Source: Bacteroidota bacterium
GTDB lineage: Bacteria; Bacteroidota; Bacteroidia; AKYH767-A; OLB10
Length of the DNA: 64,000 nucleotides
Assembly: GCA_016721435.1 (NCBI GenBank)
Contig: JADKIC010000002.1
Coordinates: 193,212 to 257,211 of the forward strand
Reading direction: 5' to 3'
Positions 82-53,230 of this stretch are shown piece after piece. A program made the position numbers and the translations under genes. Below the pieces are notes generated by a model, which saw only the letters and a list, made by a program, of their open reading frames with translations, was not told where the DNA came from and did no database searches. How positions within the stretch are numbered: position 1 is the first letter of the stretch; every line of letters starts with the position of its first letter.

Positions 82-190
82 TCGTTGTAGTGACAGGTCG
101 CGACCTGTCACACCTGTCACACCTGTTACCCCACCAATGTCCATATGTAGTGACAGGTCGCGACCTGTCACTACGACTACGACAAACGGA
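82..190. repeat. Two copies, 60 bp apart, of the perfect 20-bp palindrome TGACAGGTCGCGACCTGTCA with related flanks (ATGTAGTGACAGG...). Same element family as the tandem array at 8672-9105.
   Basis: Read directly: palindromes at 101-120 and 161-180. Flanks GTCGTTGTAGTGACAGG / CCTGTCACTACGACTACGAC form a longer imperfect inverted repeat. Confidence 0.6.
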
Positions 191-5606: not shown

Positions 5607-5655
5607 ATACGAATTACGAATGGGCACGAAAATACGAATTACGAAAATACGAAAT
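5607..5655. repeat. Short tandem array of ATACGAA(TT/AA)ACGAA units. This is the reverse-complement of the TTCGTA repeats at 53038-53230.
   Basis: atacgaattacgaatgggcacgaaaatacgaattacgaaaatacgaaata read directly. Confidence 0.55.
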
Positions 5656-5814
5656 ATGACTTAACCGGCTTACCAGCGCTTTGTGATGAATGTGCGAACG
5701 TTTTGTTTGATAAGATGATTTTATGAGTCAGTTGGAGAATTTAATGTTGATGGTATGATCAGTGAATGAGTTTACTGGTTATTGCTTGAACGAAAATAAA
5801 TTTATGTTGTTGCA

Positions 5815-7098: not shown

Positions 7099-8142
7099 AT
7101 GGCTGTCCGAAACTATTATACCGTGCTTGGAATTTCCTCTCAGGCGAATGCAGCGGAAATTAAGAAAGCCTATCATCGTTTGGCTTTAAAATTTCATCCC
7201 GATAAAAATCCCGGTGACGCCGAAGCTCCTGAGCGTTTTAAAGAGGTACTCGAAGCCTATCAGGTTTTGATTGATCCCGGAAAGAGGTCGGCGTATGATT
7301 TACGTAGTTCCGGATTTTCCTTTTCCGAATCACTCATTCATTATGAATATTTAAAGGCTGAGGTTGATACAAGTAAGGTGAAGTTGAATGAAGAAGTAGA
7401 GTTAACGTTTTCGTTTCCCGGAGAAGGGCGTTTTTTCAGGAAGCCGGTCTTGCAGGGTTGGATAATCACTGCCGGACCTACCGTCGATCACCGTGTTGTG
7501 CATAGAGATGGAAATGCCGTTAAAGAAACGGTTTTGCACTATACCGTTTGTCCGCTGCAAAAAGGCTGGCTTACCATTCCACCGGCAAGTATCAATTTCT
7601 ATCATCATCCGATTGCTTCCAATGCCTTGCAAATTGAAGTGGAATCGAATCAATGTTTTTTTAAAGAAAACGAAGAAGCAGGCCCTGAACCTTGTCAGAT
7701 AATGATGCACCGCACACAGGTAACTAGCACAAGTGTGTACCGCAAGACCATCATACATCAGCGCGTTGTTCTTTTACCGCGCAGCGAGCTTGCGGCTTGG
7801 TATCATAAAGTAGGAAGGACAATGAAAATTGCATTTGCTGTAATAGGCGCTTTCTGGGCGATATTCAATGATTATAATTTCATCACTGGTATTGTTGCAG
7901 GTTCATTGGTTGCCGGAGTGAATGTGCAATTGATGTACCGGATGATGGGTATTAAATCTATTTTCTATTACGCGCATCATCATCCAGTAGTTCTGGAGTA
8001 TGAAGGAATCGGTTATAAACTGGGAGCAGAACCTTATAACGGCATTTTTAGCGCAAAGACCTGGGTATATATAAAATCAATTTTAAGTAAGAACGTAGTA
8101 GCACAGATGAATAAGTGTGAATCGAAAATCGTAAGAAATTAA
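7099..8142 (+). CDS. J-domain (DnaJ-like) protein with C-terminal membrane segments
   Basis: [36 protein letters not shown]-domain with HPD motif. Hydrophobic segments near the C-terminus. TAATTTTG -7 box at 7077-7084 supports the 7099 start. Confidence 0.8.
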
Positions 8143-8201
8143 TATGCAAAAAAAATCATATGTATATTTAGAATCTTAGTGTAGACCAACGCCCATCACC
8201 A

Positions 8202-8627
8202 TCAGTTTATATTGGAGATGTTTCCTGTTTTCGATGCCCCACCGTCGGGAACGATTGATGTCGTGTTTCCAAAATTCTTATAAGCTTCAGCGACCTCAAA
8301 AACTGTGAAAGAGAAATAAAAAAAGAAAAAGCTTAATGCAAACGGTATCACCATCGGTTTATTAATAAATGCAAAAACGATAATGATGGTGAGATAAATA
8401 AATAATTTTAATCCCGTGGATCCCATATAATAGCGAATAAATTTTTTACTATCACCTAATCTCTTTACCAATCCCCAATGCAATATTGCCGTCACGATGG
8501 CAATGAAACAAGGCAACCAAACAAACCCGGGATAATACCATTTGGCAGGAATATAATTTCCCATGAAATAGTATATGCCAGACGTTAGAGCAGTCAGAAG
8601 TATTAATTTAAGCAAGAAGTTCTTCAT
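8202..8627 (-). CDS. Small polytopic membrane protein (141 aa), function unknown
   Basis: Start MKNFLLKLILL at 8627 (cat at 8625-8627). Four hydrophobic segments. The ORF-track extension beyond 8627 is translation of the repeat array. Confidence 0.5.
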   Translation of the reverse strand: MKNFLLKLILLTALTSGIYYFMGNYIPAKWYYPGFVWLPCFIAIVTAILHWGLVKRLGDSKKFIRYYMGSTGLKLFIYLTIIIVFAFINKPMVIPFALSFFFFYFSFTVFEVAEAYKNFGNTTSIVPDGGASKTGNISNIN

Positions 8628-8671
8628 AAGAATACGAAACCTGCCTGCCGGCAGGCAGGTGCGAAAGTACA

Positions 8672-9105
8672 AAAGTAGGGACAGGTCGCGACCTGTCCTG
8701 GGAAAACAATCCACGTATGTAGGGACAAGTCGCGACCTGTCCCGGGAAAACAATCCACGTATGTAGGGACAGGTCGCGACCTGTCCCGGGAAAACAATCC
8801 ACGCATGTAATGACAGGTCGCGACCTGTCCTGGGAAAACAATCCACGTATGTAGGGACAGGTCGCGACCTGTCCCGGGAAAACAATCCACGTATATAGGG
8901 ACAGGTCGCGACCTGTCCTGGGAAAACAATCCACGTATGTAGGGACAGGTCGCGACCTGTCCCGGGAAAACAATCCACGCATGTAATGACAGGTCGCGAC
9001 CTGTCCCGGGAAAACAATCCACGTATGTAGGGACAGGTCCGACCCCGGAACCGTGAACGCATGTAATGACAGGTCGCGACCTGTCATTACATGCGTTCAC
9101 GGGGA
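8672..9105. repeat. Tandem array of about 9 copies of a 44-bp unit. Each unit has the perfect 22-bp palindrome GGGACAGGTCGCGACCTGTCCC (or the ATGACAGG...CCTGTCAT variant) and a constant 22-bp linker GGAAAACAATCCACGTATGTA. The array ends in a perfect 52-bp palindrome at 9051-9102.
   Basis: Unit starts read at 8678, 8722, 8766, 8810, 8854, 8898, 8942, 8986 and 9030, an exact 44-bp period. The last internal unit is degenerate. The terminal hairpin is CCGTGAACGCATGTAATGACAGGTCGCGACCTGTCATTACATGCGTTCACGG. Confidence 0.9.
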
Positions 9106-9107
9106 CA

Positions 9108-9338
9108 TTACATTTTTTTAGAAATCTGTTTTATGAAATAATACATCACACCCGCCACAGAAAAGAGTGCGAGGAAAAGGGTAAAGGCCGGAAATTTTAA
9201 TTGAAGGTATTCGTCGAGTTTTACGCCCGCCCAGGTCATCAGAAAGATGGTGGCACCCATTTGGAGGCCCATCGATGAGTAGCGGATATAATTGTCAAGC
9301 CGTTTTTTCGGCGAGTTTTGGGGCTGATCGCTCGCCAT
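9108..9338 (-). CDS. Small two-TM membrane protein, AtpZ/AtpI-like (ATPase_gene1-type)
   Basis: 76 aa: polar N-terminus, then NYIRYSSMGLQMGATIFLMTWAGVKLDEYL and a second TM. This architecture is typical of the small AtpZ-like proteins of Bacteroidetes. Confidence 0.4.
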   Translation of the reverse strand: MASDQPQNSPKKRLDNYIRYSSMGLQMGATIFLMTWAGVKLDEYLQLKFPAFTLFLALFSVAGVMYYFIKQISKKM

Positions 9339-9729
9339 GTTTGATGTCTTTGATTAACGGACCCATGCTGCAGTTGCCGGTAAAGCTCGCGCCTACTTCT
9401 ACAACGAGTTTCCCGGTAAGAATATCGCCATTGATACGAGCCTGTGATTTTAAAAATAGCATCTCAGCCACCGTGGTATTGCCTTTTACAGCACCTGAAA
9501 TATCAGCATTTTGGCAGATGACATCTCCTTCCACTTGTCCTGTACTACCTATCACCACCTTCGACTTAGAACTAACTGATCCTCTTATGGTTCCGTCAAT
9601 TCTGACATCGCCATTGGACTTAATTTCGCCTTCGATGACGGTACCTGCACCAATGATGTTAATAGCGCCATTTCCGTTCGTATCTGCCGGACGGGTGATT
9701 ACCCCTTTGTTTTTCAGTTGTTGGAACAT
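9295..9729 (-). CDS. Bactofilin (CcmA-like polymer-forming cytoskeletal protein)
   Basis: Repetitive beta-helix pattern IIGAGTVIEGEIKSNGDVRIDGTIRGSV...VVIGSTGQVEGDV typical of the bactofilin domain. Confidence 0.85.
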   Translation of the reverse strand: MFQQLKNKGVITRPADTNGNGAINIIGAGTVIEGEIKSNGDVRIDGTIRGSVSSKSKVVIGSTGQVEGDVICQNADISGAVKGNTTVAEMLFLKSQARINGDILTGKLVVEVGASFTGNCSMGPLIKDIKHGERSAPKLAEKTA

Positions 9730-9945
9730 GGTAATGAGTGGGTTATACTGTTACAATTGAAGAACGGCAAATATAGGAAATAATTGAAAATTATTAACAA
9801 TGGGATGTTGATTTGTGGGTAACGCTCATTTCAGGGGATCGTTCGCTTCGCTCACTGGGGAATCGTTCGCTGCGTCTTATCAAGTTCGCTCAAGAACCTT
9901 TGATCAAAAAAGTTCTGAACCGTAGGGTGACTTTTCCAATTATAG

Positions 9946-9962
9946 TTCGTATATTTGCGAAT
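9946..9962 (+). promoter_or_regulatory. 17-bp element TTCGTATATTTGCGAAT (a TTCG-N8-CGAA dyad containing a TATATTTG -7 box), 19 nt upstream of the arsR-like start. Repeated at 10318-10334.
   Basis: Identical 17-mer read at both sites. TAnnTTTG matches the Bacteroidetes -7 promoter consensus. Confidence 0.6.
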
Positions 9963-9980
9963 AGATAAACGAATAAGGTA

Positions 9981-10280
9981 TGCCGGGAACAAAGGAAAAA
10001 TTCACACAAAATCAGGAATTGATTGCCAGGTTTGCTAATGCATTGGGAAACCCTGTTCGGGTAACTATTTTACAATTATTATAAAAGCAAAGTTGTTGTT
10101 ATCACGGGGACATGGCAGAAGAACTTCCCATCGCGAAAAGCACTTTATCTCAACATTTAAAAGTTTTGTTAGATGCAGGATTAATCCAAGGGGAAATTAT
10201 TCCGCCTAAAACAAAATATTGTATTAATCGGGAGAATTGGAACTTAGCCAAGGGTTTAATGATGGGATTTTTTGACTAAA
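9981..10280 (+). pseudogene. ArsR/SmtB-family HTH regulator interrupted by an in-frame TAA at 10083-10085
   Basis: Translation MPGTKEKFTQNQELIARFANALGNPVRVTILQLL*KQSCCYHGDMAEELPIAKSTLSQHLKVLLDAGLIQGEIIPPKTKYCIN. The LGNPVRVTILQLL...STLSQHLKVL pattern matches the ArsR HTH. The stop falls in the loop preceding the recognition helices. It could be a sequencing error or a true nonsense mutation. Confidence 0.55.
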
Positions 10281-14087: not shown

Positions 14088-15080
14088 TTACACTTCCGCG
14101 GAAGCGTACCGTTCCCTTATAAATTCTAATGTTTGAAGAATTTCATCGTAACTATTGCTGGTCACCAGTTTCATGCGATGCTCTTTAAAATGATCAAGGC
14201 CTTTGAAATAGTTGGTATAGTGACGGCGCATTTCTACAATGCCCACATAATCGCCTTTCCAGCGAATGGAAAAATCCAAATGGGAGCGACAGGTATCTAC
14301 TCTTTGTGATATGGTAGGCGGGGAAAGATGAGTTCCCTCATCCATAAAATGTTTGATCTCATTAAAGATCCAGGGATAGCCGATACTTGCTCTGCCGATC
14401 ATGACACCATCCACCCCATATCGGTTTTTCATCTCCATAGCTTTCTCCGGCGTATCTACGTCACCGTTACCAAATATGGGAATAGTAATGCGGGGGTTCT
14501 CCTTGATTTTTCCGATGAGTGTCCAATCGGCAGGTCCTTTATAGAGTTGCGCCCGTGTACGGCCATGAATGGTCAGTGCCGCAATGCCAATGTCCTGCAA
14601 TCGTTCCGCAACATCTTCAATGTTCTTCGTACTCTCATCCCAACCCAATCGCGTTTTTACCGTCACAGGGCGGGTGGCAATTTTGACGATTTCTGAAGTC
14701 ATCTCCACCATCTTCGGAATATCCTGCAGCAATGCCGCTCCTGCTCCTCTGCAAGCCACTGCTTTCACCGGACAACCATAATTGATATCAATTAAATCGG
14801 GTTCTGCCTCATCCGCAATTCTCCCCGCCTCACGCATCGAGTCCACATCGGAACCAAACAGTTGTATGCCAATCGGACGTTCGTACTCAAAAATGTCGAG
14901 CTTCATCTTACTCTTCCTCGCCATCCGAATCAATCCCTCACTCGAAATAAACTCCGTATACATCAAATCAGCACCGTGCTGCTTGCACACATACCGAAAC
15001 GGCGGATCACTTACATCTTCCATAGGAGCCAGAAGTAAGGGAAAGTCAGGGAGCGATATGTTACCGATTTTGAGAGTCAA
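14088..15080 (-). CDS. dus: tRNA-dihydrouridine synthase (Dus family). Annotated start is a TTG at 15078-15080.
   Basis: LKIGNISLPDFPLLLAPMEDVSDPPFR and the FMN-binding TIM-barrel motifs of Dus enzymes. The start codon reads TTG. The heptamer repeat array begins immediately upstream. Confidence 0.85.
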   Translation of the reverse strand: MTLKIGNISLPDFPLLLAPMEDVSDPPFRYVCKQHGADLMYTEFISSEGLIRMARKSKMKLDIFEYERPIGIQLFGSDVDSMREAGRIADEAEPDLIDINYGCPVKAVACRGAGAALLQDIPKMVEMTSEIVKIATRPVTVKTRLGWDESTKNIEDVAERLQDIGIAALTIHGRTRAQLYKGPADWTLIGKIKENPRITIPIFGNGDVDTPEKAMEMKNRYGVDGVMIGRASIGYPWIFNEIKHFMDEGTHLSPPTISQRVDTCRSHLDFSIRWKGDYVGIVEMRRHYTNYFKGLDHFKEHRMKLVTSNSYDEILQTLEFIRERYASAEV

Positions 15081-15287
15081 GGTTTGAGGTTTAAGGTTTA
15101 AAGTTCAGGTTCAAGGTTTAAGGTTTAAAGTTCAAGGTTTAAGGTTTAAGGTTTAAAGTTCAAGGTTTAAAGTTCAAGGTTTAAGGTTTAAAGTTCAAGG
15201 TTTAAAGTTCAAGGTTTAAAGTTTAAGGTTTAAGGTTTAAGGTTTAGTAAGGTTTAAGTTTAAGCAGGTTTAAAGTTCAAGGTTTAT
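15081..15287. repeat. About 30 tandem copies of the heptamer AGGTTTA alternating with AAGTTCA (higher-order 14/21-mer), directly abutting the dus start codon
   Basis: ggtttgaggtttaaggtttaaagttcaggttcaaggtttaaggtttaaagttcaaggttta... read directly through about 15287. Confidence 0.9.
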
Positions 15288-53037: not shown

Positions 53038-53230
53038 GTACCCTTCACCCATTCGTACCCTTCGTACCCTTCACCCATTCGTACCCCTCGTACCCTTCAC
53101 ACATTCGTACCCTTCGTAAATTCGTACCCTTCGTACATTCGTACATTCGCCTATTTCGCGAATTCGTCCATATGTAATTCGTATATTCGTATTCTCGCCC
53201 GGCGGGCGAGATCTATTCGTAAATTCGTAA
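53038..53230. repeat. Degenerate tandem array of TTCGTAC / CCCTTCGTA units (about 20 copies). Includes the 19-bp perfect palindrome TCTCGCCCGGCGGGCGAGA at 53194-53212.
   Basis: gtacccttcacccattcgtacccttcgtacccttcacccattcgtacccctcgtaccc...attcgtaaattcgtaacc read directly. Reverse-complement relation to 5607-5655. Confidence 0.8.

Follow-up and report, generated by a model that had tools for sequence, protein, structure and literature searches.

In this work, we have analysed computationally a 64,000-nucleotide stretch of Bacteroidota DNA (contig JADKIC010000002.1 of assembly GCA_016721435.1, positions 193,212 to 257,211; hereafter the window) and, within it, a tandem array of palindromes that lies between an atpZ-like gene and a gene for a small membrane protein. 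Our results indicate that this array is very probably a head-to-tail cluster of GTAG-tagged repetitive extragenic palindromes (REPs), of the type that serves as substrate for the HUH-Y1 enzymes known as REP-associated tyrosine transposases (RAYTs) or TnpA_REP, here those of subclass 2.4 (RAYT group 4). The assignment draws on sequence comparison, in which we found the foot, the hairpin, its dispersal, its extragenic position and its association with RAYT genes in other genomes. The array is a strain-variable cluster of a catalogued REP type, and it calls for no new mechanism.

A footed hairpin repeated head to tail

The Tandem Repeats Finder (TRF) program delimited a 44-bp-period array at window positions 8675–9044 (8.4 copies, 93% matches, score 656). 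Unit by unit, it resolves into eight full 44-bp units, arranged head to tail on the + strand at 8675–9026 and starting at 8675 + 44n (n = 0 to 7). Their consensus is GTAG-GGACAGGTCGCGACCTGTCC-CGGGAAAACAATCCACGTAT, in which a 4-nt GTAG foot is followed by the 20-bp hairpin GGACAGGTCGCGACCTGTCC and then by a 20-nt linker, CGGGAAAACAATCCACGTAT; the linkers are the same across units except for 1-nt variants. The original prediction, made from the letters of the window, had described nine units at exact 44-bp spacing; TRF bears out the 44-bp array, and the count is corrected to eight, the ninth unit (9027–9050, + strand) being degenerate, with GTAGGGACAGGTC followed by the scrambled CGACCCCGGAA. 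The scrambling begins after 13 nt, and related strains that carry the 52-bp palindrome found beyond this point have an intact unit where the window has the degenerate one.

The foot reads GTAG in units 1–3, 5 and 7 and in the degenerate ninth, GTAA in units 4 and 8, and ATAG in unit 6. It lies on the + strand in all eight full units, and feet on both strands occur in the terminal palindrome only. A perfect 22-bp palindrome had been claimed for the array as a whole; the 22-mer, GGGACAGGTCGCGACCTGTCCC, is in fact restricted to units 3, 5 and 7, the perfect palindrome measuring 20 bp in units 1 and 6 and 18 bp in units 4 and 8, and being interrupted in unit 2 by an internal G>A. For units 4 and 8 a two-sided variant had been described. 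Its left side is there (ATGACAGG / GTAATGACAGG); its right side is not, since the right arm of both units is CCTGTCC and not CCTGTCAT. These two units define a higher-order repeat of 176 bp (four units) within the array.

The 18-nt core of the hairpin, GACAGGTCGCGACCTGTC, was found in 11 copies in the window at up to three mismatches, against 0 in 100 shuffles. The G+C content of the array is 55%, that of the window 40%. Folded as single-stranded DNA, a single unit is predicted to form a 9-bp stem with a CGCG loop (−10.4 kcal/mol), and the 28-bp double-foot form reaches −12.2 kcal/mol (z −6.8). The window holds one family of footed hairpins, with 9 matches against about 1 in shuffles.

This family has a second site in the window, on the + strand between convergent genes (87–174), which comprises a single-foot copy (87–110), 9-bp half-stem micro-repeats ACCTGTCAC (103–126) and a double-foot copy GTAGTGACAGGTCGCGACCTGTCACTAC (147–174). 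The core reads GTAGTGACAGGTCGCGACCTGTCA(CTAC) there, and the copies at 87 and 147 have the GTAG foot. Strains differ at this site too: L129 and L132 have one REP, the window, L128, L130 and L133 have two, and the number of 9-bp micro-repeats also varies. In related strains the family has a third site, located about 8.8 kb past the window's left edge, where a REP is followed by three 22-bp half-REP repeats. All three sites are intergenic and lie at the 3΄ ends of genes.

Gain and loss of whole units at the locus

Through exact matches to proteins of the window we located the same locus in six other assemblies. The most divergent relative, GCA_016713925.1, has four units (the founder REP and three full units), GCA_016719205.1 has seven and is without the 52-bp palindrome, the window has eight plus the degenerate one, and GCA_963852085.1 and two JGI contigs have 12. 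In GCA_020054605.1 there are at least nine, with a gap of Ns inside the array, and one further contig (L126) terminates within the array. These counts show that close relatives differ by whole units, through expansion and contraction of the array. The original prediction had named two observations that would speak against it, occurrence of the element at this place only and an invariant copy number; neither was made, with copies at 87–174 and in other genomes and with 4, 7, 8 + 1 and 12 units among close relatives, and the repeat-element reading is thereby favoured.

The most divergent relative (L132) also suggests what was amplified. At the head of its array stands a double-foot REP, and behind it comes a diverged linker copy, ATATGTGGGATTGTTTCCATA. 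Because the diverged linker follows the founder REP, the linker would be the original 3΄ flank of that REP, so that the amplified block would consist of the REP plus its flank. The unit-specific linker CCTACATACGTGGATTGTTTTCCC had no match in the metagenome scan, and the diverged single copy in L132 suggests that the linker is local flanking sequence. In more distant relatives with the same bactofilin–atpZ–membrane protein gene order, the spacer is free of REPs and measures 176 bp or 77 bp, and in one the membrane-protein gene is inverted. Founder, intermediate and expanded states are thus all preserved among the relatives.

The same hairpin in other genomes

A scan of one genome per prokaryotic species returned the palindrome core in at least 119 loci, where by our own estimate about 10 matches would be expected by chance for a random 18-mer in that collection. 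They are spread over Bacteroidota (Pontibacter, Flavobacterium, Chitinophagaceae and Paludibacter among the names), Patescibacteria (many), Nitrospinota, Omnitrophota, Gammaproteobacteria, Chloroflexota, Spirochaetia, Acidobacteria and others. The extended consensus over the palindrome loci listed is GTAGGGACAGGTCGCGACCTGTCCCTAC. Among the matches listed, GT[AG]G and/or C[CT]AC feet accompany 108 of 132 copies (33 are footed on both sides, 75 on one, and 24 have no foot).

In other genomes the REP or its right half also forms arrays, with periods of 15, 18, 20, 21, 25, 29, 38, 54 and 279 bp; because the arrays elsewhere span 15 to 279 bp, the 44-bp period is not special. The longest-period example lies in a Chitinophagaceae metagenome-assembled genome (L073 4065–4927, CAVRFP010000010.1) and has 3.1 copies of a 279-bp unit, each with two REP cores 77 bp apart. 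Tandem repeats of the right arm only, together with the foot and a few bases, were seen with periods of 9, 22, 18 and 15 bp (window 103–126; the third site in L128–L133; L020 716–833; L103 5562–5592; L104 4951–4981), and that they recur in unrelated genomes is a hint of duplication by a process specific to REPs. The exact 24-nt footed REP is present in 6 of 2.9 million IMG/VR viral contigs (L217–L222); no RAYT gene was found in these six viral loci, and phages are not an obvious carrier of the REP.

A RAYT clade that travels with the hairpin

The association with RAYTs was approached from the side of the palindrome and from the side of the protein. From the palindrome side, open reading frames (ORFs) within 1.2 kb of the palindrome were clustered across the at least 119 loci listed. 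One protein recurred, an HUH-Y1 protein in seven palindrome loci among those listed (Chitinophagaceae, Bacteroidales, Flavobacteriales, a Magasanikbacteria genome and an Aminicenantes genome), with the REP flanking its gene or in frame inside it. In L031 the REP stands just upstream of the gene, inside it and just downstream; in most of the other six it lies in frame within the ORF, encoding VGTGRDLS. The alignment of these proteins (A1) and their sequences have the HUH motif MPNH[IV]H, then WQRSFHD, and the tyrosine in Y[IV]xxNP. The protein matched the NCBIfam family REP_Tyr_transpos with E 3.6e-17, and its best match in the PDB was 4ER8, the E. coli TnpA_REP. By these motifs and matches, the HUH-Y1 genes at the palindrome correspond to TnpA_REP of subclass 2.4 (RAYT group 4).

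REPs recognised by RAYT/TnpA_REP have a characteristic signature, a short hairpin with GTAG at its 5΄ foot (PMC3733652, PMC8266576). Subclass 2.4 is described as having 'long' and 'double foot' REPs, REPs in frame between the HUH motif and the tyrosine in tnpA_REP, the motifs NH[IFV]H, WQ and YIxNNP, and a range of Cyanobacteria, Bacteroidetes and scattered phyla (PMC6006769). The same single-foot and double-foot (GTAG...CTAC) forms are found here, the RAYTs met at this hairpin elsewhere have the same NH[IV]H, WQ and YIxxNP motifs with the REP in frame between HUH and Tyr, and the distribution over Bacteroidota and scattered phyla is the same as well. The exact 18-mer core was not found in our literature search, and a near-identical REP stands in one supplementary table: Quentin et al. 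2018 give GTAGGGACAGGTCGTGACCTGTCC for subclass 2.4 (entry PaprA01, ADQ78812.1; PMC6006769). That sequence is one loop base apart from the unit described here (CGCG in the window, CGTG in PaprA01), its GTAG foot, its stem GGACAGGT/ACCTGTCC and the position of its 4-nt loop being the same.

A protein search started from one RAYT returned 2637 homologues, whose source names are RayT or transposase. In 109 of the best 120 of these 2637, the REP-coded peptide lies about 16 aa past the HUH motif. One homologue, P0015, has between its HUH and WQRS motifs three GRDLS peptides spaced at exactly 20 residues, which implies an in-frame REP array of 60-nt period inside a RAYT ORF.

From the protein side, the REP-coded insert was removed from five RAYTs, which were aligned (A1), to avoid circularity, and 80 RAYT loci were fetched from metagenomes by protein similarity. 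A perfect hairpin with a GT[AG]G foot lies in the gene or within 300 bp of it in 70 of these 80 loci. The GGACAGG..CCTGTCC core, at up to three mismatches, occurs in 11 of the 80, and nine of these 11 belong to the eleven RAYTs that are nearest to the query (42–56% identity); the remaining two, L150 (39%) and L200 (35%), have diverged variants of the core. Otherwise, RAYTs at 29–41% identity bear other stems, for example GTAGGGGCGGG... and GTAGAGACG... Since in the stem variants GGAACGGTCGCGACCGTTCC, GGACAAGTCGTGACTTGTCC and GGGCAGGTCGCGACCTGCCC of related loci pairing is kept through compensatory changes in both arms, the hairpin structure is conserved. At the level of sequence, the hairpin co-varies with the RAYT clade, as an enzyme and its substrate would. 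The comparison points to one near-invariant REP hairpin tied to one RAYT clade across many phyla, which agrees with the published work on subclass 2.4 and extends it.

The surroundings of the array

The original prediction placed the array between an AtpZ-like gene and a membrane-protein gene and had it fill the whole spacer, and both points are borne out. The gene upstream of the array (9108–9338, − strand, 76 aa) belongs to the AtpZ/ATPase_gene1 family (Pfam PF09527, E 3.1e-12), and the REP cluster begins 5 nt past its stop codon. The downstream gene (8202–8627, − strand) codes for a hydrophobic protein of 141 aa, for which no family was found in Pfam or NCBIfam. Repeats occupy the spacer throughout (8628–9107). 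Bactofilin, atpZ, a DnaJ-domain gene and dxr make up the wider neighbourhood, and in related strains a neighbouring gene has a CHU_C domain, in keeping with gene content of the Bacteroidota type.

At the atpZ end stands a 52-bp palindrome (9051–9102), which had been announced as a perfect palindrome capping the array. It is exact; it is outside the 44-bp register, with its core 80 bp, not 88 bp, past unit 8. It consists of a double-foot REP, GTAATGACAGGTCGCGACCTGTCATTAC, whose arms are extended by the inverted left flank CCGTGAACGCAT, and as a single-stranded DNA hairpin it is predicted to reach −29.6 kcal/mol (z −11.3). Neither the seven-unit strain (L129/L122) nor the more divergent L132 has it. 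Because its right arm repeats the left flank in inverted orientation, we read this palindrome, by its sequence, as a derived extension of the founder hairpin.

At the other end, the palindrome described at 8641–8658 is real and extends to a perfect 22 bp, ACCTGCCTGCCGGCAGGCAGGT (8639–8660), located 11 nt upstream of the ATG of the membrane-protein gene. It was considered as a further REP and rejected, being without a GTAG foot, single-copy in the window and missing in some strains. In its place L130, L131 and L132 have repeats of a TAYTTTCG octamer; in the strains that are without the palindrome, about five copies of this octamer adjoin the membrane-protein start on its upstream side. A related octamer, ACGAAAAT (ATTTTCGT on the minus strand), occurs about four times at window 5626–5656, upstream of an M50 peptidase gene. 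Octamer repeats of this type may represent a motif of a promoter or a leader.

Immediately behind the last unit, on the − strand at 8670–8677, lies the candidate −7 box TACTTTTG, whose TA is supplied by the CTAC foot of that unit. It matches TAnnTTTG, which we take to be the Bacteroidota −7 promoter consensus, and a similar TATTTTGTACCTTCGC is found upstream of the homologous membrane-protein gene in L134. From this match, the membrane-protein gene may possibly have its own promoter at TACTTTTG.

Public gene calls run ORFs across the REP array, one of 197 aa and one of 338 aa fused to the membrane protein, in L121/L128 (GCA_963852085.1) and L123/L124/L130 (JGI 3300056624, 3300056623). The sole family match of these ORFs is a 'faint' SPATA6 match on the 197-aa one. 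Both are almost certainly spurious; because 44 is not a multiple of 3, any ORF shifts frame at each unit.

Elsewhere in the window TRF reported two further tandem arrays. A heptamer array, AAGGTTT, occupies 15077–15286 (about 29 copies, also with a 28-bp period) and is unrelated to the REP. The other, at 53038–53149, has periods of 17, 26 and 52 bp and the consensus GTACCCTTCAC(A/C)CATTC.

Discussion

Several observations weigh against the assignment of the array to the RAYT-linked REPs of subclass 2.4. No RAYT gene was found in the 64-kb window by tblastn with seven RAYT queries, the translated repeat itself being the only match, nor in the approximately 25 kb fetched from related strains, and none of the best 120 of the 2637 RAYT homologues could be tied to the related assemblies. 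The RAYTs found at the palindrome elsewhere match their families under the curated cut-offs (62.6 against 80 bits in NCBIfam, about 19 against 23 for Pfam Y1_Tnp), and the REP-coded insert that splits the domain may contribute to these scores. The protein search prefilters on shared words and its query held the REP-coded peptide, so it may favour matches that hold the peptide too. Three REP sites only were seen in about 85 kb. All units have one orientation, unlike the classical BIMEs (bacterial interspersed mosaic elements) of E. coli or REPIN doublets. Finally, unit counts taken from short-read assemblies are unreliable, one scaffold having an N-gap and one contig ending in the array.

The array shares with E. 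coli BIMEs the regular spacing of intergenic REPs with conserved linkers. In E. coli BIMEs, the number of units varies between strains. REP orientation alternates in BIMEs (PMC2817692); unlike there, all units here point in one direction, and an assignment to BIMEs of the E. coli type was rejected with all eight feet on the + strand. E. coli REPs have a bulged, imperfect stem that a group 2 RAYT recognises, and for BIMEs the binding of integration host factor, gyrase and Pol I has been reported.

Another parallel in arrangement is found in the GTAG REP clusters of Pseudomonas and others, in which singletons are reiterated in tandem, head to tail, with a flanking DNA segment (Di Nocera et al. 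2013, PMC3733652). As in those clusters, amplification goes with clustering here, between unidirectional or convergent genes and downstream of coding regions; the phylum and the REP sequence family are different, and for Bacteroidetes that survey reported CGTC repeats only and no GTAG repeats (PMC3733652). With the subterminal hairpins of IS200/IS605 elements, which a related HUH-Y1 enzyme recognises as single-stranded DNA, strand-specifically, by the hairpin and a 5΄ guide tetranucleotide (PMC8266576), the units share both of these parts. Unlike IS200/IS605, they are isolated hairpins without a left-end/right-end pair, and no transposase gene lies between two ends. Compared with subclass 2.4 as published, what stands apart here is the long head-to-tail array with a fixed 20-nt linker and no RAYT gene found in the window or the fetched flanks.

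We propose that one REP settled downstream of atpZ in an ancestor, and that the block of REP and flank would then have been amplified and contracted in tandem. Likely, this would have occurred by slippage of replication at the direct repeats, which form hairpins, or by unequal recombination between them. RAYT binding and cleavage of single-stranded REPs have been shown for group 2 and group 3 enzymes only, and the REPs of BIMEs are TnpA_REP substrates, in which C|T sites on the 5΄ or the 3΄ side of the hairpin are cut (PMC8266576); by analogy with these enzymes, a RAYT could have contributed by cutting and rejoining the lagging-strand template at C|T or C|A. The + strand, which is G-rich and bears the feet, has a positive GC skew across the window, so it is probably the lagging-strand template, as judged from two independent sites only, on which single-stranded hairpins can form. 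The 52-bp palindrome could have arisen by a template switch at the founder hairpin, with the left flank copied inverted. The array is most likely selfish or near-neutral repeat DNA. If transcription of atpZ enters it, a string of stable hairpins would be added to the 3΄ end of the mRNA. E. coli REPs have been reported to protect mRNA or to attenuate read-through. By analogy, we conjecture that at most the array may do the same for atpZ, and that the membrane-protein gene is probably transcribed from a −7 box of its own, immediately past the last unit.

Could the hairpins instead have been selected as an RNA element? The array would then act in the atpZ transcript as a 3΄-end stabiliser, an attenuator or a partial terminator, the strength of the effect being tuned by the number of copies, and would uncouple the membrane-protein gene from bactofilin–atpZ, which is compatible with an origin as REPs. 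The position of the array between co-directional genes, just past the atpZ stop, is in line with this, as is the predicted fold of the minus-strand RNA (−279.7 kcal/mol, z −20.8); the array has been kept at the locus in all six related assemblies, and REPs are mostly downstream of coding regions and plausibly transcribed (PMC3733652). As to the insulator or terminator role raised in the original prediction, the last unit and the 22-bp palindrome provide weak terminator-like sites on the gene strand, the only two flagged by the terminator scan (tails CTACTTTTGT and TTCGTATTCT). However, two such sites on the minus strand compare with 2.0 in shuffles, and the internal units are followed by CUACAUACGUGG, without a U-tract directly past the stem. 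A three-fold range of unit numbers and 52-bp and 22-bp palindromes that come and go argue against tight selection, relatives have REP-free spacers of 77–176 bp or the gene inverted, and a search of Rfam across 7800–10000 gave no family at threshold, with sub-threshold miRNA-precursor hairpin noise only. We therefore hold a selected RNA element to be possible and rather unlikely.

A stronger role for the transposase can also be imagined, in which arrays of whole and half REPs would be direct footprints of ongoing RAYT catalysis, strain-specific loci that evolve fast and also set the read-through from atpZ. Guided by the foot, the enzyme would repeatedly cut the lagging-strand template at C|T or C|A and rejoin it, so that exactly one unit is gained or lost each time, and the 44-bp array, the 9- and 22-bp half-REP repeats, the arrays of 15 to 279 bp and the in-frame 60-nt array would all be examples. 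Because it carries its own REP within its coding sequence, the RAYT clade would spread between phyla as a self-contained unit. We regard this proposal as doubtful.

The original prediction had favoured an array of binding sites for a dimeric protein, that is, duplex operators presented on one helical face that would regulate or insulate the atpZ and membrane-protein genes. Perfect or near-perfect palindromes, regular 44-bp spacing and a gene directly downstream do have the look of operators. Nevertheless, 44 bp are 4.19 turns at 10.5 bp per turn, a drift of about 70 degrees per unit, and for this reason the units are not on one helix face. At least 119 loci from many phyla have this palindrome in contexts that are unrelated; its arrays elsewhere have periods from 15 to 279 bp, and it co-varies with the transposase clade and not with adjacent genes. 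No regulator gene adjoins the array, close relatives have 4 to 12 units, and other genera with the same gene pair have none. An operator array is thus very unlikely, and the dimeric-protein claim is not sustained. The alternative offered alongside it, an expanded REP- or MITE-like element (miniature inverted-repeat transposable element), fared better in its first half: the foot, the hairpin, the dispersal, the tie to RAYTs and the listing in the literature speak for a REP, and no terminal inverted repeats or target-site duplications of a MITE were seen flanking a unit.

That the array is a collapsed or mis-assembled repeat, its odd ninth unit and its variant units not being real, is highly improbable. 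L125/L133 have a run of Ns in the array, L126 ends in it, and the window count of 8 + 1 is shared with no other assembly; yet at least six independent assemblies have the array at this locus, on contigs that include some of 0.5 to 1.4 Mb, with coherent unit variants and intact flanks in each, which limits the doubt to the exact number of units in short-read assemblies. Another repeat class, be it a CRISPR array, plasmid-type iterons or a replication origin, a MITE or a coding repeat, can be practically dismissed: a regularly spaced palindromic repeat resembles a CRISPR array or iterons, and an ORF runs through the array on the minus strand, but the 'spacers' are alike in all units, no cas or rep gene lies nearby, no flanking inverted repeats or duplications of a MITE were seen, and a coding repeat is at odds with the period of 44 and with 197-aa and 338-aa ORFs that have no reliable family match.

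What does the REP cluster mean for this lineage and for the family? For annotation, the appropriate label is that of a REP cluster, and neither that of a gene nor that of a regulatory operator array; two public annotations place the 197-aa and 338-aa ORFs over it. The constancy of one REP with its RAYT clade across phyla is noteworthy, although it is not new in kind. As an example the locus has some value, being a long and clean array of REPs, all in the same orientation, from an uncultured lineage of Bacteroidota, and its natural series of 0, 4, 7, 8 and 12 units is one in which the growth of a REP cluster and the effect of copy number on the neighbouring genes could be studied.

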